A DNA stretch of 64,000 nt from an uncultured Gammaproteobacteria bacterium (GCA_963797555.1 CAWCPV010000014.1:224001-288000); one strand, 5' to 3'. Counted from the first letter of the stretch, positions 1 through 55,088 are shown. Notes: a model not told the origin generated them from the letters alone. Numbers and translations: made by a program.

Positions 1-3
1 GCC

Positions 4-633
4 GTGGGCTACCTGCGCGCTTTCCAGCACCCCTCGTCCGAAGAGCGGCGGCGAGAGCGGCACGAGTTCCTCGCCGAGAAGGCGCTTTGGAATGCCTACC
101 GGTGCCAGAGTGACGCGGTGCTGCTCATCGACGAGATCGACAAGGCGCCGCGGGATTTCCCCAATGACCTGCTACAGGAGCTGGACCAGCACCGTTTCAA
201 GCACCCGTTCAAAGAGGAGTATGTCGAGCCGGCCAGCGGCCGCCCTCCGGTGGTGGTCATCACCAGCAACGCCGAGCGGCGCCTCCCGGACGCCTTCCTG
301 CGCCGCTGCATCGTGCACCACATCGAGCTGACGGAGGAATTGGTCGAGCGGGCCGTGCAGGCGAGGATGGGTGCGAAGGACAAGGACTTTCCCGTCGATC
401 TCGACGAGGACGTCCGGCGCGAAGCTCTCGGACGGTTCTGGGAGCTGCGGGACCCGGCCCACAACCTCCAGAAACGACCGTCCACGGGCGAGCTCCTGGT
501 CTGGCTGACCATCCTGAGCGCCCGCAGTGTCACTGCGGAGGAGCTGCGGGGCAAGGCGCTCGCGCACCTGCCCGGGATCGAGGCCCTGGTCAAGGACCGC
601 GACGACCTGAGGCAGCTCCGCAGCCCGGCGTGA
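4..633 (+). CDS. MoxR-family AAA+ ATPase (5' end outside window)
   Basis: Walker B VLLIDEIDKA, RDFPNDLL, VVITSNAERRLPDAFLRRC and KRPSTGELLVW motifs. Confidence 0.85.
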   Translation: MGYLRAFQHPSSEERRRERHEFLAEKALWNAYRCQSDAVLLIDEIDKAPRDFPNDLLQELDQHRFKHPFKEEYVEPASGRPPVVVITSNAERRLPDAFLRRCIVHHIELTEELVERAVQARMGAKDKDFPVDLDEDVRREALGRFWELRDPAHNLQKRPSTGELLVWLTILSARSVTAEELRGKALAHLPGIEALVKDRDDLRQLRSPA

Positions 634-2850
634 GCCAGCGCCAGGCCATGCCTGGAACGCGGAAGGCCACGGCAGTTTCTGCCCACGAGTCCGGGTCCGC
701 CCTCGCGGGCCTCGCCTCGCTCCCCGCCGACCTGGATGTCCTCCTGCACGCCCTGCGCGTCGAAAACATCCCGGTCGGCATCGGCGAGCTGACTTGGCTC
801 AATCACGCCTTCTCCCTCGGCCCTAGCCTGGACCGCGAGCAGCTCCGGGCTTTGCTGGCGTGCGCTCTGGTCAAGGACCCGCTCCGACGCCCCGACTTCG
901 ATGCTCTGTTCGACGACTGGTACCCGGAGATCCAGACCGGGCGCCCTGCGGCGGAGGAGGAACAGCTGGCGCAGGCAGGTGCACCCCCCGCGGGCAGCAA
1001 GGAAACGCAGGGCGGGGTCCGAGGCGGCCCCCCCGACGAGAAGGCTCCAACGGCACAGCAACCGCCGGAGTCGTGGCCCAGGCGGCTCGCCGCCGTCCTG
1101 TGGCGGCTGGCGGAGCTGGCCGGGGCGACCGCCGGCGCCACGCTGGCGCGAATCAGAAGCCTGGCGAGGCGCCGGGTGTTCTGGCTGAGCTTGGTTCTGA
1201 TGATCGAGCTGGTGGCCGCCGGTGTGTACCACTACCACTGCCCGAGCAGGCCCGGCCCCGTGACCCGCCCGCCGCAGCAAGAGCGCAAGCAGGGTCCGGC
1301 GCCAGCGCAAGGGCTTCGCACGGTGCGCGCCGCGCCGCCCCCTGGCGCAAAGCCCTTCGCGCCGGTGGACTCCGGTGCGCGCTGGGCCGGAGCCGGTCTG
1401 GGTCTGCTCGCCTTGACCCTGGCCGCCATTGCCGGTGGGCGCTACCGCCGCCAGCGGGCGTTGCCGGCGCCGGTCCCGGCGGTCGGGGGGCCGGCCTGGC
1501 TGCCGCGGCTGCCGCCGGAGGCGAGCGGACCCGAGCTGCTGGATGCGGAGCAGCTCCGCACCCTGGTCTGGGGGATCGGCCGCTTCGTGTCCGAGGACCT
1601 CACGGACCAGATCGATCCCGAGCGGACGGTCGCCGCGACCGCACGGGCGGGAGGGATGCCGGAGCTGCGTTATCGGCGAGCGGTCTATCCACGGGAGGTC
1701 TGGCTGTGGCAGGACCAGTCGGTCGAGGACCCGGGCGTCGAGCGGCTCGCCGACGAAGTGGAGGTCAGCCTGGAGCGGGCGGGATTGCCGGTGCGCCGGG
1801 GTTGGTTCGCCGACCTCCCGGAGGTGGTGCGCTGCGAGGAGCGGCGAGGAGCGGGCGGGCCGGCCGGTTTGGCCGCCGGCCATGCGGGTCGAGATTCTGG
1901 ACTGGCTGGCGCGGGCAGAGGCCCCGGGCGGGAGCGTGCCGGTGGCGGCGCAGAGCCTGCTCGGCCGGGCGCTCGCCTTCTGGCGGGGGCGCTGCCGGGA
2001 GGAGCGGTCGCGTCGGGAGAGGGCCGAGAGCCGGCTCCACCCCTTCCAGGGCACCGCGGCGGAGCAGCGGCTGCGCCTGGAAGAGGCGCTGCTCGATTTG
2101 TGGGCGCGTCCCGCCGAGGCCGCCATGGCGCTGTACGGGCTGTTCCGGGGCGCCTTCAGTGACGAGGTGGAGGCGCGCCTCGCCACCTATGCTCCACGGG
2201 ACTGGGGCCCGCGTCGGGGCCGGGTGCGGCTGCCCTGGCGCTGGTCGAGCCAGCCGGAGAAGGTCCGCTGGCTGTACGGGAAGATGGGCCTGGGTGGGGA
2301 GGGAGTCCTGGCGCAGCGCGGCGGCCTGCGCCCCTCGGCCACGCTGGGGGCGGCGCTGGGGCTGTGCCTCGGGCTCGTGGCGGCGGCCGGCACGGTCGCC
2401 CTGCGCCCGCCCGGCCTCGAGGAGTGGACCGACCCCGAGAGCGGCATTGCCTTCCTGCGCATCCCCGGCGGTCGCTTTCTGATGGGCTCGCCCGGGACCG
2501 CACTCCGAGGCCGACCCAGACGAGCGGCCACAGCACGAAGTCAGGCTCGGTCCCTTCTGGATGGCCCGCACCGAGACCACCAACGCCCAGTACCGGCGTC
2601 TGCACCCTGAGCACGAAGGTGCAGACGAGTCGCCGGCGGTCGGCGTCACCTGGGCCGAAGCCAAAGCGTTTTGCGAGCGGTTCGGCTTCTACCTGCCCAC
2701 CGAGGCCCAGTGGGAAGACGCCGCCCGAGCGGGGACCACCACCCGCTGGTCCTTCGGAGACGACCCGGCCGACCTCGGGTCTTATGCGTGGTACAGCGAA
2801 AACTCCGGCTCGCGAACCCATCCGGTGGGCACGAAGGCGCCCTCGAACAG
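630..2850 (+). pseudogene. MoxR-partner vWA-like membrane protein with C-terminal FGE-sulfatase (CLec-fold) domain; frameshifted (~1850, ~2500) and 3'-truncated
   Basis: GTGA overlap with moxR. ORFs 630..2162, 1429..2610 and 2561..3355 join up. FGE motifs FLRIPGGRFLMGS, TETTNAQY, LPTEAQWE and HPVGTKAP are present; GLYDMxGNVWEW and RGGSW are missing. Confidence 0.65.
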
Positions 2851-3009
2851 ATGGCGCGGCGTCTCGCCGGGATCAGACTACTGCCCCGGACGTGGCAGGC
2901 CGCCGAGTTCGTTGGAAACTGGGGTAACCCAGGACAACCGCAGCGCGGGGTACTGGAACGAAGGCGGCGCTCGCTGCGCGCCGCGGTGGAAGACAGCCTC
3001 GAATCTGGC

Positions 3010-3355
3010 TCCACAAGAGGAGCACGGACGACGCTACTCGGTGCGGGACCTCAAGGCCTTTCAGGTGGCGTTGCCGATCTATTGGGAGGCGAGCCAGGCG
3101 CTCGGGGAGGACCACGTGGCGACTCGTGCCCTGCGCCGCGTGCTCGAGCAGCTCGCCCGCGGGTGTCACCGCTTCGAGCGCACGCAGAAGGTCGAGGCTT
3201 ATGGTCAGGCCCGGGACGACGCCAGCCTGGCGGCCTGCGAGCTGCTGCTAACAGGGTCGCCCGTAGCCGAAAGCCTGATGGAGCGGGTCGAGCAAGAACT
3301 CATGCCGGCCTTCGCGGGCCTGATGCGGCGAGCCGACAGGCGCCGGGGTGTGTAG
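3010..3355 (+). CDS. Four-helix-bundle (23S-IVS/Avd-like) domain; start uncertain, possibly frameshifted from ~2851
   Basis: YSVRDLKAFQVALPIY resembles the FxDLxVWQxAxxL start of four-helix-bundle proteins; helical; ends 9 nt before avd. Confidence 0.4.
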
Positions 3356-3364
3356 GCCTCCTCG

Positions 3365-3700
3365 ATGGGCGACGAGCGCCGCGCCCCGCTGTTCACCGAT
3401 GCCTTCGCGCTGTGCGAGTGGCTGCTCGGGCATCTGGATGAGGAGCCGGGGGTCCTAGCGCCGGCATTGTGCCGCAATGCCCTTTCGCTGCTGGAGGCGA
3501 TCACCTTGGCGCTCAAGGGACAGTTGCGCGAGGAGCGACTGATCGAGGCGGACGAGCGGCTGGTGGCCCTGCGGGTACAGTTGCGTCTGGCGGCCGGCAC
3601 CGGCCGGCTCAGCGAGCGCCAGGCCCTGTACGCGCTGGAGATCGCGGACCGCATCGGCCGGCAGGTGGGGGGTTGGCGCCGGGCGCTGGAGCGGGCATGA
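3365..3700 (+). CDS. avd: DGR accessory variability determinant (Avd)
   Basis: 111 aa, helical, LRVQLRLA and RIGRQVGGW motifs, directly upstream of TR and RT. Confidence 0.85.
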   Translation: MGDERRAPLFTDAFALCEWLLGHLDEEPGVLAPALCRNALSLLEAITLALKGQLREERLIEADERLVALRVQLRLAAGTGRLSERQALYALEIADRIGRQVGGWRRALERA

Positions 3701-3732
3701 TTGGGGTGGGCAGGCCCGAACGATGCCCGAGC

Positions 3733-3861
3733 CAGGTGGACCGCGGGGGCTCCGCTTGGAACGACCCGAGGAATCTGCGCTCTGCGAACCGGGACAGGAA
3801 CGACCCCGAGAACCGGAACGACAACCAGGGGTTCCGTTGCGTGCGTGTTCCGGGCCGCCAA
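3733..3861 (+). repeat. DGR template repeat (TR), 129 nt
   Basis: Gap-free alignment to the reverse complement of 5121..5249; 15 mismatches, all at TR adenines; AAC-rich. Confidence 0.95.
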
Positions 3862-4007
3862 CACACCGCCACTGGGCGCTGCGCAGGGCCTGCCTCGGCC
3901 GGGGTTGCGCCCCGGTATCCCGGGCCCGCCCGTTCTGGTAGGCCACCTGGCCGACGGTCCGGGCGGGCCGACCTGACCGGCAGTGTCGGACTGCCCCATT
4001 TTCTGCG

Positions 4008-5000
4008 GTGCGCAGGGTTCCCGCCGGCAGCTTCGACCGGCTGACCAGCCTCGAAGCGCTGTGGCGAGCCTTCCGAGCGTGCCGGCGCGGTAAGCGGCGC
4101 CAGCCGCGCATGGCTGAGTTCGATCTGGACGCCGACCGGCGTCTCTGCGCGCTGCAAAGGAATCTGGCTGCCGGGGTGTACCGACCGGACCCGTGGCGCC
4201 TGCGCATCGTGCACGACCCCAAGACCCGGCTGATCGCGGCCCCCTCCATCCGCGACCGCGTGGTCCACCGGGCGCTGCTCGACGAGATTGGTCCGTACTA
4301 CGAGCGCGGTTTCCTCGATCACTCCTATGCCTGGGGGACTGGCCGCGGTCCGCACCGGGCCGTGCTGCAGCTTCTCGCCTGGATGCGCCGCCACCGCTAT
4401 CGGCTGAGCCTGGACATGGCGCGTTACTTTCCGTCGATCGCCCATCCGGTCCTGAGCGCATTGCTGTTCCACAGGCTCGGGGATCCGAAGACACGCGCTT
4501 TGCTGCTCGGGCTGCTCGCCGCCGGGGGCACGGTGTACCGCACGGACCGGGCAGGGGAGGCGCTGGGCTTCGGCGGGTCGGCCTGGCCGGCCGATCGGGG
4601 TCTGGCGCTCGGCTCCTACCTCAGCCAGTGGTGCGGGAACTTCTACCTCGACGGCCTGGACCACTACGTGAAGCGTGAGCTGAAGGTGAAGGCCTACCTG
4701 CGCTACATGGACGATCTGGTGTTACTGGACGACGACCGAGCGAGACTGGAGGAAGTCCGAGCGGCGATCGGCGAATGGGTCGGGCGGGAGCGGGGGCTGG
4801 CGCTGAACCCCAAGCGCTGGGACGTGCTCCCGGCGCGGGAGCCGGTGGTGTTCCTCGGCTATCGGGTGAGCCCCGCGGGGGTCGCGCCGAGCCGCAAGCT
4901 GCGCCGGCGCATGGCTAGACGCCTGCGCCGAGCGGCGAGGCAGGGCACCGATGCGCTGGGGCGGACGCTGGCCTCCTACCAGGGGCTGTTGCTGTTCTGA
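4008..5000 (+). CDS. DGR reverse transcriptase
   Basis: PKTRLIAAPSIRDRVVH, LDMARYFPSI, GLALGSYLSQ (DGR-type SQ motif), YLRYMDD; 330 aa with no maturase or endonuclease domain. Confidence 0.95.
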   Translation: MRRVPAGSFDRLTSLEALWRAFRACRRGKRRQPRMAEFDLDADRRLCALQRNLAAGVYRPDPWRLRIVHDPKTRLIAAPSIRDRVVHRALLDEIGPYYERGFLDHSYAWGTGRGPHRAVLQLLAWMRRHRYRLSLDMARYFPSIAHPVLSALLFHRLGDPKTRALLLGLLAAGGTVYRTDRAGEALGFGGSAWPADRGLALGSYLSQWCGNFYLDGLDHYVKRELKVKAYLRYMDDLVLLDDDRARLEEVRAAIGEWVGRERGLALNPKRWDVLPAREPVVFLGYRVSPAGVAPSRKLRRRMARRLRRAARQGTDALGRTLASYQGLLLF

Positions 5001-5046
5001 ACGCGGTCGCCCGCGAGTGTCCACCTCGTGACACGCCGTGTCCTTT

Positions 5047-5093
5047 TGTCACTTCAGTGACAGGGGCGCACGGGCGGCGCTTCGCGCCGCCCG
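5047..5093 (-). promoter_or_regulatory. Hairpins downstream of VR (candidate DGR homing hairpin)
   Basis: 10-bp stem CGGGCGGCGC/GCGCCGCCCG (5071..5093) with a GAA loop on the target strand; second 6-bp stem TGTCAC/GTGACA (5047..5062). Confidence 0.7.
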
Positions 5094-5114
5094 AGAAAAC
5101 AAGGGGTCAAGCGG

Positions 5115-6156
5115 TCAAGACTGGCGGCCCGGAACACGCACGCAACGGAACCCCCGGTCGACGTACCGGTTCTCGGGGTCGACCCTGGCCCGGAGCGCAG
5201 AGCGCAGATACCTCGGGGCGTCCCAAGCGGAGCCCCCGCGGCCCACCCGACGAAGGCCGATGGCCGGCCCTGCCGGGTTGTCGGCTTGGCCGAATCCGTA
5301 TCTTCCGTAATAGTCCCAGCACCACTCCCACACGTTGCCCAGCATGTCGTACAGCCCCCAGGGGTTGGGCTCCTTTTCCGCTACCGGGTGGACTCTGCTG
5401 CCCGAATTACCCTCGAACCAGGCGTAGTCTCCCAGCTCGCGCTCGTCATCGCCGAAGAACCAGCGGGCGGTAGCCCCGGCCCGGACCGCGTACTCCCACT
5501 CCGCCTCGGTGGGCAGGCGGTAGCCGTTGGCGGTGCGGTCCCAGCGCCAGCGCGTGAGCACCTTACGGTAGCAGGGCCTGAGACCCAGCCGCTCGGAGAG
5601 GCGGTTGCAGAACCGCACGGCGTCGCCCCAGCTCACGTAGCTGGCGGGAAGCTCGCCGTCTTGCGGGTCGCTGTCCCACTCGGGCCGATTCTGCGGCCAT
5701 GACTTCCCGGTACAGCGCCCGGGTCACCGGCGTCTGGCCCATGAGGAAGCCGGCGACCCGGACCAGGTGCTGGGGCCGCTCGTCCTCGACTGCGGACTGG
5801 TCATCATCGGCGCTGCCCATCCGAAACTCGCCGGCCGGCAGCGCCACCATCGTCAGCAGCCCGGGGATGTCCTCCACCGCCGAGAAGGGGAGGGGCTGCG
5901 GAGGCGGCTCGGGGACGGGCTCGGGTACCGGTGCGACCACCGCCCGCCCGAGGAACGCGAGGGGTGCCGCCACGGCGAGGGCCGCGAACCCGAGCGCGAG
6001 CCCCGGAGCACCGCCCGGCTGAAAGAGGGCGAGCCAACCGGCGAGCGTTCCGAGGAGCGCCCCGACCGCGAGCCCCCAGAGGAAACCGACCTCTTCGAGC
6101 GCTCTCCACGCCTTACGGAGACGGGATGGCGCCGACGCTGCCAGGGTGCTTTTCAC
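5115..6156 (-). CDS. DGR target: membrane-anchored FGE-sulfatase/CLec-fold protein (one frameshift ~5690)
   Basis: Two hydrophobic segments, Pro-rich linker, GEFRMGS, LPTEAEWEY, NPWGLYDMLGNVWEWC, RGGSAW, GFRCVR; split over ORFs 5563..6156 and 5115..5636. Confidence 0.85.
5121..5249 (-). repeat. DGR variable repeat (VR)
   Basis: Encodes RVGRGGSAWDAPRYLRSALRARVDPENRYVDRGFRCVRVPGRQ at the target C-terminus; differs from TR only at adenines. Confidence 0.95.
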
Positions 6157-6215
6157 TTGCGGCTAGCAGATCCCAGCGACCGAAGTGTATCGAACCTTGT
6201 CTCCATTGGGCTGAG

Positions 6216-7059
6216 TCAGCCACTGCGGGCATGCTCATACTTCTTCAGCAGGTAGCGGGCGATCCCGGCGCCGGCCGCGTTGTGAGAGGCGAAGAACAGA
6301 TAGTAGATGGTCGCATTCCTGCGATTGCGCATCGGGATCGGTTCCGGCACCTCATTGAAGCCGGCCACCTCCTGCAGCCGCTTGCGGAAAGCACTGGCAA
6401 CCTGCCGGTTGCCGGCGGTCTTGATCAGCTCTTCCTCCCCGAACAGGGTTCTCTGGGGTGTATAGACGATGTTACGCCAGGAATCGTCGCCCCAGAATCG
6501 GGTCATCCGCTGCAGGTCCGCAGCATCTACGCCAGCCGGATTCAGCCACAAGGCATTCCGGTTGATATCCATGATCGGAAAGTTCAGGAACTAGCTCGAC
6601 GCTGCGCATCTTGGCGGCATGAGCGAGCACCTCCCAGCTCACGCTGAGGCCATAAGGATCGAGCAGGCACAGACCACGCTTGTAGTCCTCATATCTGACC
6701 TTGGGAAACACTTGGTCCAGCAGAACACGATTGCAGTCCCCCTCGTAGATGAACACCTCGGGGCGGTCCCCCACCAGCTCCCGAAGGTTCGCGATCTTGG
6801 CTCCGTCCAGGTCGATCAGATGCAGCTCCCGGAACGGAGGCTCCACGGCCAGGGCGTTCAGCGGACTACCCGGCACCAGTTCTCGCGTAGTCTTGGAGAG
6901 GTGGATGCCGGCCCCTGCGAAGGCGTCCACGTAGACATGCTGAAGCCGCGGCTGCCGCGCGAGAATCGTGGAATATGCCTTGGCATACTCGCTCACGATA
7001 GTCAGCTTGACCTCGGACCAGTAGTCGATCTCGTCGAACCGCAGAGGCGCGGAGCCCAT
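6216..7059 (-). CDS. Three-Cys-motif partner protein (TcmP-like, methyltransferase-like); frameshift ~6590
   Basis: WSEVKL..Y, YVDAFAGAG, GSPL, LLDPYG, YYLFFAS motifs; divergent from a Gp37/Gp68 gene. Confidence 0.75.
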
Positions 7060-7148
7060 GCGTCTCCCTCCCGTTGGTTTCTTTCTGAGGCCGGGATTGA
7101 CTCCCGCACAGAAGGGTACTATACGGGAGTACAAAAGGAGAACAATGG

Positions 7149-7901
7149 ATGAGCGAGCGAAGCTCCATCGAGTGGACCGACGCCACCTGGAATCCCGTTC
7201 GGGGCTGCACCAAGATATCCCCCGGGTGCAAGCACTGTTACGCCGAGACCTTTGCCGACCGGTTCCGTGGTGTCCCGGGGCACCCGTTTGAGCAGGGCTT
7301 CGACCTCCGCCTGGTGCCCGAGGTACTCCATCTTCCGCTGAAGTGGAAGCGGGGACGCCTGATCTTCGTGAACAGCATGTCGGACCTGTTTCATGATCGC
7401 GTCCCGGACGACTACATCGGGCGAGTCTTTGGCGTTATGTGCGCGGCGCCGCAGCATCAGTTTCAGATTCTGACCAAGCGGGCCGAGCGGCTGGCCGCGT
7501 TTACCCGTACCGAAGCAGTGCCATCGAATGCTTGGATTGGCGTGAGCGTCGAGAACGCTGATTACAAGTGGCGCATCGCCTACCTTCGACAAGTCGACAC
7601 ACGGGTGCGTTTCTTGAGTATCGAGCCCTTGTTGGGCCCGGTCGGTGAACTGGATCTCGCTGGTATCGCCTGAGTAATCGTGGGCGGCGAGAGCGGCCGA
7701 CGCGCGCGGCCTGTCGAGGCGGAGTGGGTGCGGGACGTTAGGGAGCAGTGCTTAAACGCCGGTCTGCCGTTCTTTTTCAAGCAATGGGGTGGCCGACGCA
7801 AGGCGCGTGCCGGACGAGAGCTCGATGGTCGTACCTGGAACCAAATGCCCCTCGGCGTCCCCGTTCATCGTTCCTCAGCCCTCTTCGACTCGTGCAGCTA
7901 G
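7149..7901 (+). CDS. Phage Gp37/Gp68 (DUF5131) family three-Cys protein; in-frame TGA at 7671..7673
   Basis: [48 protein letters not shown]; TGA replaces the W of WVIVGGESG; FFFKQWGG. Confidence 0.85.
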
Positions 7902-8166
7902 TCCCCCACCCACGAGATAAAATCGGGATGCTAAACTTATTTCTCAATAGGTTGAGGCAACCTGTTGAGGAGGATAGTGATGAAGAAGCGCTATATCGTG
8001 CAGTTGTCCGCCGAAGAGCGTGATCGGCTGGAAGGTTGGGTGAATCGGGGGCGGGAGGCGCCTATCTATAGAGCGACAATTACGTTGACCGGTTGGCGAC
8101 AACTACTTTGTCCGGTTGATCGGCCACACTGGCGGCGTTCTGACATCCGATGCTTCGGGGGGAGGG

Positions 8167-9696
8167 ATGGCCGTCACACCGCAACAGGTCAAGGTCTATA
8201 TGTCACAGAGAACCGCAGGTAAGAACCAAGTAACCGCCGCCGCCAAGGCGGGTTTCTCGGAGCGCACGGCGCGCCGTCTTGACGAGCGGGACGAGCGTCG
8301 AGCACCGCGGGGCGCGCGGCGGTATCGAACGCGCCGCGACCCCTTTGACACCGTGTGGGACAGCGAGCTGGTCCCACTGCTTGAGCACACCCCGGCACTG
8401 CACGCGCTGACGCTCTTGGAAGGGCTCCAGGAGCGCCATCCGGGCCAGTACCCGGACAAGCTATTGCGCACCTTGCAGCGCCGGGTGAAGGCCTGGCGGG
8501 CGGCGCATGGACCCGAGAAGGAGGTGATGTTCCCACAGCAGCAGGTCCCGGGACTGCGGGGTTTGTCGGATTTCACCGTGCTCAAGGACGTCACCGTCAC
8601 CATCGCCGGCGAGCCGCTCGCCCACCGCCTCTACCATTTCCGCCTGGCCTACAGCGGCTGGTGCACGGTGCGGGTGGTGCTGGGCGGGGAGAGCTTCACG
8701 GCGCTCGCCGAGGGGCTCAGCCAGGCGCTGCTGCGCCTGGGCGGTGCACCGGCCGAGCACCGCACTGACAGCCTCTCGGCGGCGTTCAAGAACCTCTCGG
8801 CTGAGGCCCAGCACGACCTTGCGGCGCGCTACGCGGCGCTCTGCGCCCATTATGGGATGAGGCCGACGCGCAACAACCCCGGGGCCTGCCACGAGAACGG
8901 CAGCATCGAGTCACCCCACGGGCATTTGAAGCGCCGTATCGTGCAGCGCCTTCTGGCCCGGGGCAGTGCCGAGTTCCCCTCGGTGGCGTCCTACCAGGAC
9001 TTTCTCGACACCGTCACCGCCGCCGTCAACCGGCGTAACGCCACCGCCATCGAGGCCGAGCGCCCCCATCTGCGGCCCCTGCCGGTGACCTTCGCGGCCG
9101 ACTACACCGAGCTGTGGGTGAAGGTCACCACCGCCAGCACCATCACCGTGCGCTTGGTGGTCTACTCGGTCCCCGCGCGGCTCATCGGCGAGCGCCTGCG
9201 GGTGCACCTCTATGACGCCCGCCTGGAGCTGTTCCTCGGCACCGAGGCCCTGCTCATCCTCCCGCGGGTCTACCCGGCCCCGGGCAAGCGCCGGGCGAGC
9301 CGCATCGACTATCGCCATCTCGTGGGATGGCTGGTGAAGAAGCCCCGCGCCTTCTATCGGCTCCAGTACCGCGACGCCCTGCTTCCGGATGCCACCTATC
9401 AGCGTATCTGGCAGCATCTGGACGCTACCCTTGCGCCCGCCGACGCCTGCAAGCGCATGGTCGGCGCACTCAAGCTCGCCGCCGAGCACGAGTGCCAGGA
9501 GGCCCTGGGGACCCACTGGCTGGCCGCCCTGGAGCGAGGCCTATCGCCCACGCTCAGCGCCCTGCAACAACGCTTCGCACCGCCAGCCCCCGCGACGCTC
9601 CCTCTCGGCGCCACTGCTCAGCACCCGCTGGCCGACTATGACGCGCTCCTGCCCGCCACCCACCGCAGTGCCGCCGAGGAGGTGTGCCATGGCTAA
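8167..9696 (+). CDS. istA: IS21 transposase IstA
   Basis: N-terminal HTH, SDFT, HRTDSLSAA, HENGSIES integrase-core motifs. Confidence 0.9.
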   Translation: MAVTPQQVKVYMSQRTAGKNQVTAAAKAGFSERTARRLDERDERRAPRGARRYRTRRDPFDTVWDSELVPLLEHTPALHALTLLEGLQERHPGQYPDKLLRTLQRRVKAWRAAHGPEKEVMFPQQQVPGLRGLSDFTVLKDVTVTIAGEPLAHRLYHFRLAYSGWCTVRVVLGGESFTALAEGLSQALLRLGGAPAEHRTDSLSAAFKNLSAEAQHDLAARYAALCAHYGMRPTRNNPGACHENGSIESPHGHLKRRIVQRLLARGSAEFPSVASYQDFLDTVTAAVNRRNATAIEAERPHLRPLPVTFAADYTELWVKVTTASTITVRLVVYSVPARLIGERLRVHLYDARLELFLGTEALLILPRVYPAPGKRRASRIDYRHLVGWLVKKPRAFYRLQYRDALLPDATYQRIWQHLDATLAPADACKRMVGALKLAAEHECQEALGTHWLAALERGLSPTLSALQQRFAPPAPATLPLGATAQHPLADYDALLPATHRSAAEEVCHG

Positions 9697-10453
9697 CGCC
9701 GCCACCTTGCCCCTGCTGCTCAGGGAGCTGCGCCTGCCGACCATGGCACGGCTGTATCAACCGCTGCAAACCCGGGCCCTCGAGCACCACTGGAGCCTCG
9801 CCGACTATCTCGCCGCGCTCTGCGAGCACGAGCTCGCCGAACGCGAGCGGCGGCGCCTGGAGCGCCACCTCAACGATGCCCGCCTGCCCGCGGGCAAGAC
9901 GCTCCAGCACTTCGACTTCACGGCCAGCGCCGGGCTGAACCGCCAGCAGATCGTGCAGCTCGCCGAGGATGCCACCTGGGTCGAGCGCACCGACAACCTC
10001 CTGCTCTTCGGGCCCTCCGGCGTCGGCAAAACCCATCTCGCCGCAGCCATTGGGCACGGGCTCATCAGCCAAGGGGTGCGGGTGCGTTTCGCCTCGGCAA
10101 CCAGCCTCGTCCAGGAGCTTCAAACCGCCAAACAGGCCCTCAGGCTCAGCGATGCGCTCGCCAAGCTCGACAAGTACCCGCTGCTCGTCCTCGATGACAT
10201 CGGCTACGTCAAGCGCACCGAGATGGAAAGCTCCGTGCTCTTCGAGCTCATCGCCCACCGCTACGAGAGCGGCAGTCTCCTGATCACCAGCAACCACCCC
10301 TTCAGCGAGTGGGATGCGATCTTCCCCGACAACATGATGGCCGTCGCCGCCATCGACCGGCTCGTCCACCATGCCCACATCATCGAGCTCAACGGGCAGA
10401 GCTACCGAAAGCGCCAAGCAACCCGCAACCAGGAGGTATCGAACAAGAGCTGA
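9689..10453 (+). CDS. istB: IS21 helper ATPase IstB
   Basis: GPSGVGKTHLA, LLVLDDIGY, AAIDRLVHH. Confidence 0.92.
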   Translation: MANAATLPLLLRELRLPTMARLYQPLQTRALEHHWSLADYLAALCEHELAERERRRLERHLNDARLPAGKTLQHFDFTASAGLNRQQIVQLAEDATWVERTDNLLLFGPSGVGKTHLAAAIGHGLISQGVRVRFASATSLVQELQTAKQALRLSDALAKLDKYPLLVLDDIGYVKRTEMESSVLFELIAHRYESGSLLITSNHPFSEWDAIFPDNMMAVAAIDRLVHHAHIIELNGQSYRKRQATRNQEVSNKS

Positions 10454-10716
10454 CGACAACTACCGCCTACACTACAGAGCGGCCATTCTAGTTGTCGTCA
10501 ACCGGACAGAGTAATTGACGTTCAGACACCTATCGCCGGCGACATGCGCAAGTCCTATGGTGGGTGGACGAAGGCGAACGCGGCAGCGGTCTGATAGACC
10601 GTGAAGCGGCCGAACGGGTGGGGTGTACCCGAGGAACGGTGGAACAGATTCGGGAACGGTGTGTCCGTGAAGGTTTGCAAGCGGCGCTTGAGCGGGGGAT
10701 CCTCTCGCGCCCGGAG

Positions 10717-10783
10717 GAAGCGCCCCGTGGGGACCCGCATGCGGGGTGCTGTGGGAGCCGGGGGGGCCTCCCGGCGACCCGAG
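10717..10783 (+). ncRNA. Group II (IIC-like) intron domain V/VI remnant
   Basis: GAAGCGCCCCGTGGGGACCCGCATGCGGGGTGCTGTGGG followed by a GC hairpin and GACCCGAG; no adjacent intron RT. Confidence 0.55.
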
Positions 10784-10830
10784 CGGACCGCCCGTCATTC
10801 GACGATGCCCAGGAGCGAACCGGAAACCGT

Positions 10831-11256
10831 TCAGCTTGTTTCCTCGCACCGTGCCTTCAGCCCTGCGGCCTCAAGTGCAAGATATCTGCGTGTGAGGCTA
10901 GCTGCAAGCGTGCCAACAACTGACCCGAGGAGACCGCCAAAATTGACCTTTAGTGCGACCCTAGTTCCTTCGGCGGACGGTTCGATGGTGTGCTGCGCGG
11001 TAGCAACTAGCCCCGGACTGCGGGAAACCCAGGTAAAACCAACGTCTGGCTGCCATTCGGTAACCGTCCAAATAGCTGGCCGCAGCTTGGGCTGCTCAAT
11101 TCTGAGGCGGGATCCGACGCCCAACGGTACGACATCGAAGCGCTGAATTCGACGGACAGACGGGGTCCAATCTGCCCAGCGCTCGACATCAGCGAGAATC
11201 TGCCAAACATGGGCCGGGGTGGCGGCGATGGTGACGCTTGTGCTGAAAACGCGCAT
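10831..11256 (-). CDS. SRPBCC/polyketide cyclase family protein (cassette-like)
   Basis: SVTIAATPAHVWQILADVERWADWTP motif; start 4 nt after an attC-like core site. Confidence 0.8.
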   Translation of the reverse strand: MRVFSTSVTIAATPAHVWQILADVERWADWTPSVRRIQRFDVVPLGVGSRLRIEQPKLRPAIWTVTEWQPDVGFTWVSRSPGLVATAQHTIEPSAEGTRVALKVNFGGLLGSVVGTLAASLTRRYLALEAAGLKARCEETS

Positions 11257-11260
11257 GGCG

Positions 11261-11341
11261 GTCTGACTATCAAGCTAACCGGAGACCGTGGCGGGACCGA
11301 CGGCCCGCCTACGGGCGTCCGTGTTGAGCGCCGAGTTAACG
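11261..11341 (-). repeat. attC-like integron cassette recombination site
   Basis: Minus strand reads (G)TTAAC-TCGGCGCTCAACACGGAC...CCGGTTAGCTTGATA-GTCAGAC, an imperfect palindrome with R''/L''/L'/R'-like boxes. Confidence 0.55.
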
Positions 11342-11407
11342 TGAAATGCGCCGAAGGCGCCTCAAAGTCCCCCTCGCCCGTTGGCGGGAGAGCAACCGTG
11401 TTTGCTG

Positions 11408-12362
<955 letters not shown>

Positions 12363-12530
12363 GGCTCTGGCTCCCAACCTTGCAGATACGGGCTCACTGA
12401 CCCAGGCAACCGTTCGGGTTACTCAGAGATGATGGACCTGACGACCCAAGCTCTCCCACGGTGTTTCCCACCCAGGGCAAGGACGATCTGCCAGGTCCTG
12501 AACCTCTCTCACTTTAAATCTCCACTATCC
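12363..12530 (-). ncRNA. Putative IS110 bridge RNA
   Basis: Contains segments matching the target (CCTTGCCCT, GGGAGAG) and the donor (ACGGTTGC, TGCAAG) in IS621-like order. Confidence 0.75.
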
Positions 12531-12634
12531 ATAAACATACAAGGGTTAGGGTGAGGGAAACCGGCCATGGCGTGACAAACGTTTTCATGTTCTGGGGCGG
12601 CGAAGCTCGCCAGGACCGGTTAGGCTACTCCTTT

Positions 12635-13093
12635 CTAGTACTTGAGGAGCACCGTGAACGTTATGTAGTGCGTCACCAACAGCGCAGGAACCCAGAATGC
12701 AGGTATCCAGTATGCGGGTCCCATAAACGCATGAGCTCCGTAGATTGTAGCTAGTACGATTGCCGCGACCAGATCGAGCGTTCCTTCGATGGCGAAGATC
12801 CACACCAGAAGTCGTGCAACTTTCCAATTCATCGCTACGGCCGGAATTGCAGCCAGGGCAAGCAGCGAAGCAAGCAGGTCACCGAATGCGGCGGGATATG
12901 CAAACATCGGTGGCATGCCCGCATATGTGGCTCCTCGTGCCAGGAACATCAGTCCCAAGTGTCGGAATGAATGCAGTAGAAGAATAGGAAGCAGTACGTC
13001 TCGAGGTTTCAGGTCCTGGAGTTTCGGTAGAGTATAGAGCTTGGCGGAAATCCAAAAGACCAGCGTACTAAAAAGCCATGGCGTTATAAACAT
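12635..13093 (-). CDS. Hypothetical multi-pass membrane protein (5' end uncertain)
   Basis: Four to five hydrophobic helices, HSFRHLGL and GDLLA motifs; lower GC; GCCTAAC follows the stop. Confidence 0.6.
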   Translation of the reverse strand: MFITPWLFSTLVFWISAKLYTLPKLQDLKPRDVLLPILLLHSFRHLGLMFLARGATYAGMPPMFAYPAAFGDLLASLLALAAIPAVAMNWKVARLLVWIFAIEGTLDLVAAIVLATIYGAHAFMGPAYWIPAFWVPALLVTHYITFTVLLKY

Positions 13094-13185
13094 CTCCCCG
13101 TAGCTAGGGCTGCTGCCCCTCTGGACACAGCCCCAGGAAGCTGATTCAATGCCCCCATCGTTCACCAGGTGACGAGGGGGAGCAG

Positions 13186-13700
13186 ATGGAGAAGGGGTTG
13201 CCGAGGTGGTTGGGTGGGCGCGTGCTGAGCGCGGGGGAGCTTGAGAGCATACGGCGGGAGGCTCGGCTGGCGGAGCCCCCAGTGCGAGCCGAGGTGGCGC
13301 GGCCCGCATCGCTCGGACCACACCCTGGCGGACATCGAGGTGAGCGCCGTGCTGGCCCGCGAGGTGGACCCGCCCCAGGGCGAGGAGCCCATCGAGTGGC
13401 TGCGCTCCTCACCAGCCTCCCCGTCGAGACCGCCGAGCAGGCCCTGGAGAAGCTGCAGTGGTACCTCTGCCGCTGGCAAATCGAGGTGTTCTTCAAGATC
13501 CTCAAAAGCGGCTGCCGCATCGAGAAGCTGCAGCTCGAGACCCTCGAACGCCTGGAGCCCGCGCTCGCCTTCTACCTTATCATCGCCTGGCGGGTGCTCT
13601 ACCTCACCCTGCTCGGGCGCGACTGCCCGCAGATGCCCTGCAACGTGGTGTTCGCCGAGGAGGAGTGGCGCGCGGTGTATATCGTCACCAAGCGCCAGCG
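13186..13700 (+). pseudogene. IS4-family (IS50-like) transposase fragment
   Basis: PPQGEEPIEW..LTSLPV, WYLCRWQIEVFFKILKSGCRIE (YREK region). Confidence 0.8.
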
Positions 13701-13769
13701 AGTCTCGCTGGAAATCACGCTGCTGTCCCGCCCCGACCGCGAGGCACGTGGCAGAATAACTCCCTGAGG

Positions 13770-14144
13770 TAAGCCCCCGGCTTTGCCGGGGGACTCACCG
13801 AGGTTTGACCTATACGACGGTCGTCGTGAATCTCCAATCTCCGCCAAGAGAAGGGGATCCACGATGAAAGAGTACCAGAGTCTGAGCCACACGAAGTGGG
13901 ACTGTAAGTGCAGGAAAAAGCGGATCTTCGGGGCGCTGCGCCGCCATCTGGGACGGATCTTCCACGAGTTGGCGGGCCATAAGGAATCGAAGGTGGTTGA
14001 AGGGCTTACATCCGGAACCAAGAGCAAGAGGAGGAGCGCTACGATCAACTGACGCTGCGGACATAGGTCCAGCCGCCTTGGGCGGCTCCCGGTATTATGG
14101 CGCCTTTGAGGCGCTCACCCATAAGCCCCCGGCTTTGCCGGGGG
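13770..14144 (+). mobile_element. Internally deleted IS200/IS605 element
   Basis: Identical 23-bp hairpins TAAGCCCCCGGCTTTGCCGGGGG at 13770 and 14122 flank a tnpA remnant MKEYQSLSHTKWDCK. Confidence 0.8.
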
Positions 14145-30731: not shown

Positions 30732-33357
30732 CTACCCTTGCTCGCCGTGCTGACGGCGCAGCTCTCTAATTACGCGCCGTATGCCCTGCGCGACGTCCTT
30801 CCAGGCGCTATCCCGGTCGGGCCAGAGCCTGACCGCCTCGCCGTTTTTCGGCAGGGCCTGTAGCTTTGCGAACGGGGCAGTGGTCCAATCGCAGTCGCGG
30901 ACGATGACCGGAATGACGCGCGCTTCCCCGCCCTCGTGGCGTTCCATAGCCCGCATCATCTCCACGTCGTAGCAGTAGTCCGAGGAAAGAAAATCCGCAC
31001 TCACCAGCAGCAATATGATCTCGGCCCGCTCCAGATTCCCGTCTATCTGTCCTTTCCACTCGCCCCCCGAGCAGCCTGCGGTCGTGCCAGGCGGAGATGT
31101 CGCCCTGGCGCTGTAGCAGCTTCAGGTGAGTTTCGAGCTCGTCGCGCAGGGTTTCGTCCTTGTGAGAGTAAGAATAGAACAGCCTCAATGGCGGTGCCTC
31201 GCGTGCCGATGCGCGCTCGGGGCGCCGGGCGCCTTCGAGGTCGACCCCGTCCAGCAGCTCACGCACGTCCACCCCGATGACTTCATCATCCCCTATGACC
31301 TCAGGGAAGCTTGCTATTCCCTTGGCGTCCAAAGCGATCAGCTTCTTGTAGTCCACGCGCACGCTGGGATGGCCCGGCACCGGAACCTTTGCCGCCACGG
31401 CCAGCTTCGGGATGTCGGCATGGATGCGCTCGAAATCCGAGCGGATGACGGCCAGCAATCGGCGGCGCGCATCCGGATCGGGCCCGCCGATCCGGATGGT
31501 CACGGTGCGGTCCGAGCTATCGGCCTTCACCAACGCTAGGCAGCCCTCCCACTGCAGCACCACGCCGCTCCGCCATCGCGGCCGGTCGGTGCTGAGTACG
31601 TGCGTGCGCACGATGAAGCCTGGGAGCAGGCCTTCCGGGAGGATGTCGTAGTGGTACTCGAAATTGAGACAACGATAGGCGTCGAGGTCTTCGCCCACCT
31701 CCGGCTCCTCCTTTCCGAGCAGCTCCGGGATGAGGTAACGATGTTGCAAGTCGTCGGGATAGGCGAAGCAGAGCTTGAACTTGCGCATGAGCTCCAGCAG
31801 GAACCCGTGCTTTTCCGCGGGATAGTCCTGTGCTGGCAGCAGTCGGCCGAGGTCGCTCAACCGCAGCTCACCGTGCCGCTCGGCCACCAGTTCCGAGTTC
31901 AGCAGCCGGTAAATCCCGTCGGTGATCCAGCGCGGATTGAGCACGCTGGTATCCCTGAGCCGCGGATCGTCGCGGTAGTTCAGCGCGATCCCCAGGCAGT
32001 GCAGGTAGCCCGCGAGATCGTCTTGCGCCTGTATATCCGTTTCGCCCAGCTCCCGGCATAGCTCCCGATAGCGGTCCAGGCTGAGGTAGTTCTCCTTCAT
32101 GCCGGCCAGCCGGTCCTTGATGGCGAACCAACTGGCGGGGAAGCTCGCGCGCGCCTCGCTCATGTCGCTCAGGGCCTTTCGGATCTCCTCGCGCAGATCC
32201 TCTATCCCCATCGCCGGTATCCCCATCGCCGGCCGCTCGCAGTCGGTGCTCACGAAGCCGCGGACCTGTGGGTACTTGGCTCTCAGCGCGCGATAGTTGA
32301 GCTCGAAGGACTGTTGTCGCTGCTTGTTGAGCACGACCACCACCGGCGAATCTCCGCCGAAGCTCTCGATGAGCTTCAGCCAATACTCCGAGTCCAGATC
32401 TTCGCCGCCCTCCCGGCCGTTCAACACCAAGAGATAGAGGCTGCGCTCGGTGAGGAAGAACTGGTGGGTGGCATGCATGATCTCCTGCCCGCCGAAGTCC
32501 CAGATGTTGACGCGTACCATGTCCGGTCCCATCGGGACTTGCCACTGAGTGATCTGTATGCCCGGGGTCTTGCCCTCGTCCTTGTCGAAGCGGTCCCGGA
32601 CCAGCTGGTTGACCAGCGAGGTTTTGCCGACACCGCCGCGACCCACCAGGATGAGCTTCGCCTCATTGAGCGCGCGGCTGCCGCCCCGTGTGCGGAAGTA
32701 ATACTTGAGGATCTCTGCCGGGGCGGCTGGCTGCGCTCTTTCGTCCCCCTGCTTTTCTTGAGAGGACCTGAGGACATCCATGCGACTCGGTCCGAGGATC
32801 GACGGCGGCAAGCCCAGAAGTTCGTTCTCGTGCAGGTATAGCTCTCGCAGCGAGGGCAGCCGACCCGGAGAAAGAGCCTCGGGCAGGGCGGCGAGCTGGT
32901 TGCGCGAGATATCCAGCTCTTGGAGCTGGATGAGCTGGCCGATAGCCTCGGGCAGGGCGGTGAGCTGGTTGTGCGCGACATTGAGTGATTGGAGCTGGGT
33001 GAGCCGGCCGAGGGCCTCGGGCAGAGCGGTGAGCTGATTGCCCCAGACATGGAGTGACGGCAGTTGGGTGAGCCGGCCGAGGAGCTCGGGCAAGGCGGTG
33101 AGCTGGTTGGCCCAGACATCGAGTTCCTGGAGTTGGGTGAGCCGGCCGATGGCCTCGGGCAGGGCGGTGAGCTGGTTGTCCGCGACATTGAGTGATTGGA
33201 GCTGGGTGAGTTCTCCAACCGACGCGGGCAACTCCATCAGTCCCAGCCCCCGCAGATCCAGCTCCCGACTGCCCGCCCTTCCCGCCTCAGCGATGCGGTG
33301 CTTGGCGATGATTTCCGGTGACTCGCGTTCTTGGCCTTTCTCGGGCTCTTTGCTCAT
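30732..33357 (-). CDS. Roco protein: LRR-Roc-COR-TIR (frameshift ~31065)
   Basis: 23-aa LRRs, GRGGVGKTS, WDFGGQE, LNK, COR, then FYSYSHKD..LLVSADFLSSDYCYDVEM (TIR). Confidence 0.88.
32870..33250 (-). repeat. 69-bp tandem LRR coding repeats
   Basis: Recurrent NQLTALPE units; near-identical DNA at 32945 and 33152 (offset 207 = 3x69). Confidence 0.85.
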
Positions 33358-33390
33358 GGTGCTTCCCTGGTTCATTTGCCAGAACGTTGC

Positions 33391-33418
33391 TAGGTCGGGT
33401 TAGCGTAGCGTAACCCGC
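33391..33418. repeat. REP-like palindrome
   Basis: TAGGTCGGGTTAGCGTAGCGTAACCCGC, CGGGTTA/TAACCCG stem. Confidence 0.5.
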
Positions 33419-40387: not shown

Positions 40388-40849
40388 TTACCTGAGCAAA
40401 CGCAGATCGAAGTTGAACGGCTCGGCTCTCGCGGCGCCCTTGACTGCGGCGAAATCGGGATGCGCCGGGTTGAGCAGGACGTTGCGCTGCTGCGGGACAA
40501 GCGTACTGGGCACAGCAAGCACGAGCGAAAACGCGCTCGCCGTCCACTTGTCTCCGATCACAGCCGTGGAGGACGACGGCGGATCGCGACGCCAGTCGGC
40601 GGGAAGCGCGGCGTCGTCCAGTACCATGACGGCCTCGTCCGGCAGTTCCAGGGTAAAGAGGATATAGCGGTTCAGCACCTCGCTGCGATGCAGATGCACC
40701 AGTAGCTCCAGAGCCGCCAAGGCCACACTGTCGGAGGCATACACCACGGCCACACCCTTGCTGTTCCATCGTCCTCCGTGCGTCCTGGCGCCGGAGCCGT
40801 CCAAGGCTGAGTCCGCATAGCGCTCCTTTATCAGGCGGTACACCCGCAC
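40388..40849 (-). CDS. RES-domain toxin
   Basis: YRL..GARTHGGRWN, YASDSVALAALE, VPS..NVLLNPAHP. Confidence 0.9.
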   Translation of the reverse strand: MRVYRLIKERYADSALDGSGARTHGGRWNSKGVAVVYASDSVALAALELLVHLHRSEVLNRYILFTLELPDEAVMVLDDAALPADWRRDPPSSSTAVIGDKWTASAFSLVLAVPSTLVPQQRNVLLNPAHPDFAAVKGAARAEPFNFDLRLLR

Positions 40850-41337
40850 TACGTGTACACGCCGTGCTCCAGGCGGCCAATCAGGTCCCGCACCTCGGCA
40901 GCCCCGGCCTCGGTGACGAGATGCTGCAACGGGCTATCGCCCCCCAGTGCCTTCGCGGGCTCGTTCAACCAGCGCCGCGCTGATTCCGCATCGCCTTCGA
41001 AGAGCTGCAGAGCGTCGCGGTAGGCCGCCGCGATTCGGTACACCCGGTCGCTTTCCTCCGATGACAGCCGCCCGGAGGCGCTTTTACGGCGGCGGGCGAG
41101 CGTCGCGGATGCAATCCCGGCGACCTTCAACACGGTCTGCTGAGACACGCGAAGTTCACTTGCGAGCTTCTCCACGGCCGCGACGCGAAAGCCGCGCTGG
41201 ACCTGCTGGACGAGCTCGGCTCGGTCTCGTATGAGACCGAGCCGGCGGAACACTTCGTTGACGGGAAGTCTCCCAGCTTCTGTACTTGCGGCGTGCTCGG
41301 TCGACCGAGGCTTGAAAGGTCTCGTAGATGCAGCCAC
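40849..41337 (-). CDS. Xre/MbcA/ParS antitoxin
   Basis: RLSSEESDR, ARRWLNEPAKALGGDSPL, LIGRLEHGVY. Confidence 0.9.
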   Translation of the reverse strand: MAASTRPFKPRSTEHAASTEAGRLPVNEVFRRLGLIRDRAELVQQVQRGFRVAAVEKLASELRVSQQTVLKVAGIASATLARRRKSASGRLSSEESDRVYRIAAAYRDALQLFEGDAESARRWLNEPAKALGGDSPLQHLVTEAGAAEVRDLIGRLEHGVYT

Positions 41338-41399
41338 TGAACGTCCCCTAAGATTTCATTTGGAGAATCATATATGGTCAAACGGAGGCATGGCAAGGA

Positions 41400-52063: not shown

Positions 52064-52183
52064 GGGAGAACAGGAGCCTGTATCCGTAAGTAGTTGTATA
52101 AGGATAAGAAATTAAAGGATTGCGATGAACGGATTTGGAGTGGATGGCGGGCGGTTGAGATCCGGTTGCCAGCCTGCCGATAC

Positions 52184-52199
52184 CTGTATATAATTACAG
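52184..52199. promoter_or_regulatory. LexA (SOS) box
   Basis: CTGTATATAATTACAG (CTG-N10-CAG) 17 nt upstream of lexA. Confidence 0.9.
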
Positions 52200-52216
52200 T
52201 TCTCTTGGAGATTTCT

Positions 52217-53463: not shown

Positions 53464-53482
53464 CAGCCCATGGGGGGGAGAT

Positions 53483-55072: not shown

Positions 55073-55088
55073 GGGGGGTCGGCATCCC

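Follow-up and report, generated by a model that had tools for sequence, protein, structure and literature searches.

A diversity-generating retroelement with an inverted target in an uncultured gammaproteobacterium: probably a degraded copy of a two-target cassette

The avd-TR-RT core and its repeat pair

The stretch of DNA analyzed here, hereafter the window, comprises 64,000 nucleotides (nt) from an uncultured Gammaproteobacteria bacterium (GCA_963797555.1, CAWCPV010000014.1:224001-288000). [quoted passage not shown] We consider it very probable that this is a genuine avd-TR-RT DGR of a known clade of two-target elements, present as a degraded copy which has kept its inverted target. Where the two targets of this clade have to be told apart, the repeat of the upstream target is called VR1 and that of the downstream target VR2. 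The core of the locus and its inverted target consist of the following features (aa, amino acids; bp, base pairs; CLec, C-type lectin):

3365..3700, + strand: avd (accessory variability determinant), 111 aa, apparently intact.
3733..3861, + strand: TR, 129 nt with 26 adenines, established by script comparison with the VR.
3862..4007, + strand: TR-RT spacer with conserved RNA structure, i.e. a short stem after the TR, a conserved TGCAGG and a 9-bp stem (3924-3932/3960-3968).
4008..5000, + strand: full-length DGR reverse transcriptase of 330 aa with GTG as start codon; RVT_1 in Pfam.
5028..5062, no strand assigned: three copies of the motif TGTCAC/GTGACA, two of which form the palindrome TGTCAC-TTCA-GTGACA; situated after the RT stop and before the hairpin.
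5071..5093, - strand: GC-rich hairpin or cruciform of 10 bp with a GAA loop, downstream of the VR.
[quoted passage not shown]
5121..5249, - strand: VR, 43 codons at the end of the target, stopping one codon short of its stop codon.
5115..5681, - strand: short target, C-terminal 188 residues, with an FGE-sulfatase/C-type-lectin fold that ends in the VR.
5682..5697, - strand: frameshift zone, 16 nt where the multiple of three seen in relatives (15 or 18) is expected.
5698..6156, - strand: short target, N-terminal 153 residues, with a basic N-terminus, two hydrophobic helices, a Pro-rich linker and the start of the FGE domain.

The RT stop codon (4998-5000) and the stop codon of the convergent target (5115-5117, - strand) are separated by 114 nt; these coordinates agree with the gene layout given in the initial annotation, which had placed avd, TR and RT on the + strand and an FGE/CLec target on the - strand at that distance.

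When the TR (3733-3861, + strand) was compared by script with the reverse complement of 5121-5249, all 129 nt aligned without a gap, and at each of the 15 mismatches the base in the TR is an adenine (VR base: G in seven, T in five and C in three cases). The TR is composed of 26 A, 41 C, 46 G and 16 T, and the VR is identical to it at 103 out of 103 non-A positions; from these counts, the probability that 15 out of 15 mismatches fall by chance on the 26 adenines among 129 positions is (26/129)^15, i.e. about 4e-11. The likeness breaks off sharply at both ends. The final mismatch (TR 3861) occupies the outermost position of the repeat, and a count of 14 or of 15 mismatches is therefore equally defensible. 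The ungapped repeat pair with adenine-only differences described in the initial annotation is thus borne out, as is past mutagenic retrohoming: the locus is a real DGR with an adenine-specific record. The identity of both repeats at every non-A position argues that the last homing event was recent relative to point-mutation drift.

Read in the frame of the VR, 25 of the 26 TR adenines stand at codon positions 1-2, and the TR includes six AAC codons; a stop codon cannot be reached by any adenine substitution. The possible variants of the TR number about 10^14.7 at the protein level and about 10^15.7 at the DNA level. The VR differs from the TR reading in the amino acid of 12 of the 43 codons, with no stops. 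A genome search for remote VRs, proposed together with the original description of the locus, was carried out by BLAST and by an adenine-masked scan with whole and half TR on both strands; in the 5.35-Mb, 84.6%-complete genome, the sole matches to this TR were the TR itself and the VR described above.

The best solved match of the RT is 8ub7_A at 1.1e-38, compared with 2e-18 for a group II intron RT; 8ub7 is the bRT-Avd complex of a Bordetella phage, and its chain B bears the name Avd. In a homolog search in which 8000 candidates were scored, 371 proteins were found at E <= 0.001; among the matches listed, 119 homologs besides the window's own share 56-84% identity with the window RT and are mostly 330 aa in length. 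Across 30 of these homologs, the motifs GLxLGSxxSQ and YMDD show little or no variation, and both are present in the RT of the window; the SQ motif is presumably a feature typical of DGR RTs. A FastTree phylogeny of 90 sequences, rooted with four non-DGR RTs of the window's genome, places the window RT as sister to that of the locus L034 (84% identical, with both VRs) and inside a clade of TR/VR-bearing loci. As to the phylogenetic placement called for in the initial annotation, the RT is nested among RTs that lie beside A-biased TR/VR pairs.

A profile built from 21 Avd homologs of this clade has Avd chains as its sole matches in the PDB, both of them weak (4dwl, 0.0019; 8ub7_B, 0.0093). The gene avd was detected in 22 out of 24 distinct clade loci, and its place between target and TR is conserved. 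The spacer between TR and RT was folded with RNAalifold over 18 clade loci, which gave 18 predicted pairs with compensatory changes in 12 of them; the 9-bp stem is formed by GCCCGCCCG...CGGGCGGGC and encloses the conserved GTTCYRGTAG. No Rfam family matches positions 2300-8000 of the window, spacer included, at E values up to 1.

The inverted target and the architecture of its clade

If read through, the target on the - strand (5115-6156) would encode about 345 aa; in the assembly it is found in two frames. The N-terminal part covers positions 4-59 of the PF03781 profile and the C-terminal part positions 97-255 (8e-32). The best solved match is the Treponema denticola variable protein TvpA (2y3c, 3e-35), and the C-terminal part is 60% identical to the CLec domain of the long target of L009, a relative whose locus is set out below. 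Hydropathy windows locate the two hydrophobic helices at residues 23-45 and 49-78 (about 5923-6090). In agreement with these results is the earlier view of the target as a membrane-anchored lectin-fold protein and not a phage tail fibre. Because the two hydrophobic helices follow a basic N-terminus, hydropathy suggests that the variable lectin domain faces the cytoplasm.

The frameshift reported at about 5690 is present in the assembly. The N-terminal part is open to about 5698 and the C-terminal part from about 5681; a +1 (or -2) frameshift separates them, at a distance of 440 nt upstream from the VR, and the remaining sequence of both halves is free of other disruptions. Among the relatives, all nine complete short targets are uninterrupted (333-413 aa), and all nine possess the N-terminal hydrophobic pair. 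The other downstream targets of the relatives are long in eight cases (724-1226 aa) and cut by contig ends in three.

The architecture of related loci was examined by RT scans of genome contigs and of metagenome contigs, which yielded 25 and 80 loci, respectively. In each locus, a script looked for repeats spanning 45 nt or more and having A in one copy at 80% or more of their mismatches; the term both VRs denotes an upstream VR on the strand of the RT together with a downstream VR on the other strand. Loci were counted only if they had at least 1700 nt of upstream and at least 450 nt of downstream flank:

RT identity of at least 43% (66 loci): enough flank, 25; both VRs, 19; only the inverted VR, 2; only the upstream VR, 1; neither, 3.
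RT identity below 43% (38 loci): enough flank, 13; both VRs, 0; only the inverted VR, 0; only the upstream VR, 1; neither, 12.

Since L072 and L073 are duplicates, the first group corresponds to 24 distinct loci, 18 of which have both VRs. An inverted VR is thus present in 21 out of 25 clade loci; it lies 107-450 nt past the RT stop in the clade and 121 nt past it in the window. In this widespread clade, the cassette is composed of a MoxR-like AAA ATPase, a long target (extended at its N-terminus and ending in a CLec domain with VR1), a gene with an HTH_17 (helix-turn-helix, HTH) domain, avd, TR and RT, followed by the convergent target on the opposite strand (VR2). Because the window RT is nested in a clade where 21 out of 25 loci carry an inverted VR, the convergent downstream target is the standard design of this RT clade. 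The initial annotation had regarded the downstream, opposite-strand target as a departure from the usual position; this view does not hold for the clade, in which 19 loci have the upstream target as well. The comparison turns the inverted downstream target from an oddity into the standard design of a large RT clade.

All of the 40 nearest genomes belong merely to the same class, and none of them has a close RT (best E 2e-43, 31% identity). The window's own genome (G000) harbors at least five DGR loci in all. The others, at least four with seven additional A-biased VRs among them, are situated at C14:8037-8993, C6:61444-62352, C4:375330-376238 and C3:48588-49260. The C4 locus again possesses one upstream and one convergent VR, the RT of the C3 locus is in two pieces, and the RT match of the C14 locus contains a TGA.

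Recipient flanks, upstream losses and alternative readings

The region directly downstream of the VR is conspicuous in the clade. We surveyed the 3' flanks of 46 VRs and 27 TRs from 27 clade loci (e.g. L009:4624-4780 and L009:6994-7110); the counts are descriptive, because the loci are related and tests would not be independent. One or more TTGAY/TCGAC units, from repeats that overlap the stop codon, occur within 50 nt after 42 of 46 VRs and after 3 of 27 TRs; a perfectly paired GC stem of 6 bp or more, closed by a 3-4 nt G..A loop, follows 25 of 46 VRs and 1 of 27 TRs; and at least three TGTCA/TGACA motifs are found within 170 nt of 24 of 46 VRs and of 0 of 27 TRs. The mean number of TGTCA/TGACA motifs after VRs is 2.78, versus 0.29 in shuffled sequences. 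The clade flank, shared by upstream and inverted VRs, has three parts: two to four tandem TTGAYC repeats, a GC hairpin whose G..A loop has three or four nt, and arrays of TGTCA/TGACA or, in some lineages, TGTCGACA. The variant of the array motif shifts between sub-clades, as expected for the sites of a co-evolving DNA-binding protein.

All VR flank elements and the spacer RNA structure of the clade are present in the window. Its TTGACC repeats and its hairpin are found after the VR and not after the TR. The 10-bp hairpin with a GAA loop, already recognized in the initial annotation, was confirmed at 5071-5093; it has the form CGGGCGGCGC-GAA-GCGCCGCCCG and begins 28 nt past the end of the TR/VR homology. 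A function as intrinsic terminator was rejected, given that no T-run follows the hairpin on either strand.

By analogy with the Bordetella model, the TR and the structured spacer would be transcribed, and RT and Avd would copy the TR-spacer RNA into complementary DNA (cDNA), misincorporating opposite template adenines. The free cDNA would then replace the VR through homology, and the VR would be marked as recipient by its own 3' flank, i.e. by the TTGACC repeats and the GC hairpin with a G..A loop. Since the cDNA would act in trans, the orientation of the target would be irrelevant.

The HTH_17 gene (180-190 aa, with a conserved helical C-terminal domain) stands directly upstream of avd in 21 of the 24 distinct clade loci, and it has the appearance of an accessory gene specific to the DGRs of this clade. 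Full-length relatives match PF12728 (HTH_17) at residues 3-51; the protein starts at residue 1 in 20 of the 24 loci and is N-terminally truncated in the window and in L039. At the level of sequence, the flanks and this dedicated gene suggest a protein-DNA layer in target marking or regulation. We offer as a speculative and rather unlikely model that the HTH protein binds the arrays and in this way either serves to mark or license VRs as recipients or ties homing to regulation. If this were true, DGR target recognition would include a protein-guided layer, and the window, with its HTH domain deleted and its VR2 flank intact, would represent a natural knock-out. To our knowledge, experiments have clarified the discrimination between donor and recipient in no elements other than those of the Bordetella phage and of Legionella; flank elements and HTH gene offer a concrete, testable approach to the way in which cellular DGRs distinguish the donor TR from recipient VRs. 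A literature search on DGRs with a helix-turn-helix accessory and MoxR yielded as relevant only Doré et al. 2024 and Kaur et al. 2020, and none of the texts consulted describes such a flank/HTH layer.

Upstream of avd, the window contains the following features:

1..633, + strand: MoxR-like AAA+ ATPase, 3' part, with its 5' end beyond the window start; Pfam AAA_2/AAA_5/AAA.
630..2850, + strand: long-target remnant in three frames, with the N-terminal extension and a partial FGE-sulfatase/CLec domain; VR missing.
2851..2992, no strand assigned: junction of 142 nt, situated where relatives have the CLec C-terminus, VR1 with its flank elements and the 5' end of the HTH gene.
2993..3355, + strand: HTH_17 accessory gene, C-terminal two thirds; the helix-turn-helix part is missing.

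In L009, whose RT is 68% identical to that of the window, the locus is composed as follows (L009 coordinates):

751-1677: AAA ATPase.
2329-4626: long target, 765 aa, with VR1 in its C-terminal FGE domain.
4783-5352: HTH_17 protein, 189 aa.
5356-5688: avd.
5720-5852: TR.
6001-6993: RT.
7108-8178, - strand: short target with VR2, 356 aa.

The losses in the window were mapped by tblastn of the L009 proteins. The ATPase sequence at 1-621 is 64% identical to residues 110-308 of the L009 ATPase, the first gene of the conserved locus; its match to the NCBIfam MadB-family AAA ATPase (1.4e-9) is below the cut-off. In the long-target remnant, residues 38-120 of the L009 target are represented at 1593-1841 (frame 3), residues 290-534 at 1846-2490 (frame 1) and residues 545-~675 at 2522-~2850 (frame 2); residues 121-289 (about 170) and everything beyond ~675, i.e. 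the C-terminal third with VR1, are missing. The remnant covers only positions 74-174 of the Pfam FGE-sulfatase profile, and neither BLAST nor the adenine-masked scan detected TR-like sequence in it. The junction shows no convincing likeness to the L009 proteins in tblastn. The HTH remnant (2993-3346) is 56% identical to residues 69-186 of the 189-aa L009 protein; residues 1-68 are gone and 118 remain. A deletion has probably taken away VR1 along with its flank, and also the HTH gene's DNA-binding end. In comparison with intact relatives, and contrary to the initial annotation, the DGR is not complete, since the upstream VR is lost, the HTH gene lacks its DNA-binding end and the remaining target is split. 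An origin of the deletion junctions from a mobile element, i.e. an insertion sequence (IS) or a miniature inverted-repeat transposable element (MITE), was rejected, as the segments 2840-3000 and 1780-1900 are unique in the genome. L009 itself is otherwise intact; the N-terminal extension of its long target is in two overlapping frames (L009:1674-2576 and 2329-4626).

On its other side, the DGR adjoins a TcmP/DUF5131 pair (three-Cys-motif partner and a radical-SAM-like protein, a 'mobile pair'), both genes of which are broken: TcmP (6216-7134, - strand) is split into two overlapping frames, and DUF5131 (7149-7901, + strand) has an in-frame TGA at 7671-7673. Just past the DGR, within 10 kb, follows a cluster of insertion sequences (8089-14114) which includes an IS21 element (istA-like 8089-9693, istB 9338-10450), an IS110-family transposase split into two frames (11411-12422, - strand) and a Tn5-like transposase fragment (13108-13764).

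Several observations weigh against the interpretation of the locus as a degraded copy from a two-target clade. The Avd product scores under the curated cut-offs of both models, with 2.7e-9 and 37.9 bits (cut-off 40) for PF22296 (bAvd) and 9.1e-10, below cut-off, for NCBIfam NF033474 (DGR Avd, DivGenRetAVD). The upstream FGE fragment is 35% identical to the domain of the L009 long target and is without its 24-residue insert. According to BLAST and the adenine-masked scan, no trace of VR1 is left; former VR1 activity in the lineage of the window is inferred from synteny, and a working VR1 cannot be shown. Furthermore, two relatives, L010 and L088, have only the inverted VR. The target frameshift may be an assembly error: the core gene mfd, for the transcription-repair coupling factor (G000:C3:509514-512313), is likewise broken in this assembly, its two frames overlapping near C3:510787-510809. 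That split, a true frameshift or else an indel of the assembly, bears on the trust in single frameshifts here. Finally, the window matches clade 5A of Doré et al. 2024, discussed below, by its gene content and not by a joint RT tree.

With regard to the frameshift in the short target, we checked, besides mfd, the genes secA, dnaE, uvrA and carB, each of which is a single open frame; since four of these five long core genes are intact, indel errors are not dense. The genome contains 96 stop-free frames of at least 1000 aa; rpoB and rpoC were also sought as tests of assembly quality, and neither was found in the window's incomplete genome. The lone soil-metagenome run with shared words (5%) provided 52 short contigs at 85% likeness, three of them at least 99% alike. 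Two of the pieces listed match without a difference and cover 4844-5087, ending 6 nt short of the VR-proximal end of the hairpin, and 7103-7270; none of the contigs spans the VR or 5682-5697. The in-frame stop of DUF5131 is a substitution and hence no indel artefact; it speaks for real decay of the region, as do the split TcmP, the IS21, IS110 and Tn5-like pieces nearby and the extensive losses of the long target. Taken together, a real frameshift and an assembly error appear to us about equally probable, and whether a working diversified protein is still made depends on which of them applies.

If the frameshift is an assembly error, the locus could be a fully functional single-target DGR that can do without the truncated HTH gene and that has, upstream, the FGE fragment of an unrelated paralog in decay; the cassette would then be complete for one inverted target and currently active, yet its architecture would still not be unusual. 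This interpretation can appeal to the intact RT, Avd, TR, spacer structure and VR flank elements, to a VR which is in frame, stop-free and equal to the TR at 103 of 103 non-A positions, to target halves that are undisrupted elsewhere, to the split mfd, and to L010 and L088, which show that variants with a single inverted target occur. However, remnants of ATPase, long target, HTH gene and avd follow each other in the conserved order, which points to the upstream gene as the first target; the HTH domain is kept from residue 1 in 20 out of 24 relatives, suggesting its importance; the DUF5131 stop is of the substitution type; and the four intact core genes show that indel errors are not dense. 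We therefore regard a functional single-target element as possible, though doubtful.

A still less probable interpretation, and in our view an unlikely one, is that of a dead relic, in which homing ceased before or with the deletion of VR1 and the HTH domain, so that the VR differences are frozen and the island is pseudogenizing. The losses of VR1 and the HTH domain, the split target, the broken neighbors and the nearby IS elements would all fit. Degenerate DGR loci are, moreover, common in multi-DGR genomes according to the accessible text of Doré et al. 2024, and the window's genome has at least four other DGR loci, two of them with damaged RTs. Against a relic speaks the lack of any drift at the 103 non-A positions, in the hairpin, in the repeats and in the spacer stems; the RT and avd frames are full length, and all clade-invariant residues checked are retained. 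Practically no weight can be given to the idea that the locus is no DGR and that a lectin-fold gene resembles a non-coding copy by chance or gene conversion: 15 out of 15 mismatches at adenines (about 4e-11 by chance), a DGR-type RT and Avd adjoining the repeat, and the same arrangement with independent A-only mismatches in dozens of relatives all contradict it. In the degraded two-target DGR which we prefer, no damage is apparent by sequence in RT, Avd or TR, in the spacer structure or in the flank elements of VR2, so the machinery may still run. The kind of element is already known; the window is a new, damaged member, neither complete nor architecturally unusual for its clade. Taken alone, the locus adds little, being one more damaged DGR of a described type in a genome with at least five DGR loci.

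Elsewhere in the window, a LexA-linked mutagenesis cassette (52094-58170) includes lexA (52094-52816), an ImuB-like Y-family polymerase (53258-55069) and a DnaE2-like polymerase which is split in two frames near 56016 (G000:C14:279113-280015 and 280017-281666). Further conflict-type genes are an 863-aa LRR-Roc-COR GTPase (30811-33399, - strand) and a RES toxin with an Xre-family antitoxin (40391-41355, - strand).

Comparison with known systems

The DGR of Bordetella phage BPP-1 (mtd-avd-TR-brt) is the prototype of these elements. The window shares with it the avd-TR-RT core, an RT whose best match is 8ub7, adenine-specific mutagenesis, a VR at the 3' end of a CLec-fold gene, and a GC hairpin after the VR. 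In the part of Guo et al. 2011 accessible to us, GC stems of 7-10 bp with GRNA loops are described 4-34 bp after VRs; the spacing of 28 nt in the window lies inside this published range, and its loop has 3 nt (GAA) instead of 4 nt (GRNA). The same text reports that inversion of the BPP-1 target leaves homing at wild-type level, and therefore an inverted target needs no special mechanism. In contrast to BPP-1, the element of the window is cellular and not phage-borne, its target is no tail fibre, and the locus adds an HTH gene, TTGACC repeats and TGTCA arrays.

The closest solved target, TvpA, has in common with the target of the window the FGE-sulfatase subtype of the C-type lectin fold and a C-terminal VR. 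It is reportedly a lipoprotein, and its DGR is said to use an HRDC accessory gene (architecture C in the 2018 scheme of Wu). The window differs by the two hydrophobic helices of its target and by avd and HTH_17 in its locus.

VRs on the strand opposite to the TR have been published before. As far as the accessible portions of these sources go, DiGReF (2012, PMC3521204) includes an opposite-strand VR in Pseudogulbenkiania sp. NH8B, and MyDGR (2019, PMC6602519) calls VRs on the strand opposite the TR 'rare'; Wu et al. 2018 distinguish 48 architectures, sorted partly by target orientation, and note components on different strands, while their Table S1 gives same-strand TG-AVD-TR-RT-TG entries with five occurrences. 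In DiGReF and MyDGR, opposite-strand VRs are rare and remote, whereas in the clade of the window they are the rule, 107-450 nt past the RT stop. Surveys which call them rare thus understate their frequency for this RT clade.

Kaur et al. 2020 (eLife, PMC7159879) describe, in the text accessible to us, MoxR-vWA (VMAP) ternary conflict systems linked to DGR-diversified FGS domains; the window resembles these in that a MoxR-type ATPase is tied to a protein ending in a DGR-diversified FGS/CLec domain. Pfam detected no vWA/VMAP domain in window 630-2162 or 1429-2610 or in the L009 proteins, and the window begins inside the ATPase. To judge from the literature, the diversified lectin-fold domains probably belong to a MoxR-linked conflict system, in which they would act as variable sensors of ligands or antigens.

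A close counterpart is clade 5A of Doré et al. 2024 (PNAS, PMC10907252), exemplified by DGR 8 of Thiohalocapsa PB-PSB1, with MoxR-associated CLec targets. In its accessible portions, this study reports several DGR loci per genome and degenerate loci shaped by nearby transposons; the targets of DGR 8 are predicted to be cytoplasmic, and that text is silent on the orientation of the short target. Common to clade 5A and the full cassette of the window's RT clade are a MoxR-like ATPase directly upstream of a target with a domain-less N-terminal extension, a helix-turn-helix gene, and two CLec targets, one long and one short; the genome of the window, with at least five DGR loci, also resembles the multi-DGR genomes of that study. 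In the window itself, the ATPase (1-633) precedes the long-target remnant, and a short CLec-only second target is found at 5115-6156 (- strand); the VR-bearing long target, reduced here to a remnant without VR, is preserved in relatives such as L009. Further differences are an HTH gene without its HTH and a short target with two N-terminal hydrophobic helices. A lectin-fold sensor target outside phages, as given in the initial annotation, belongs to a described kind: MoxR-associated CLec targets are those of clade 5A.

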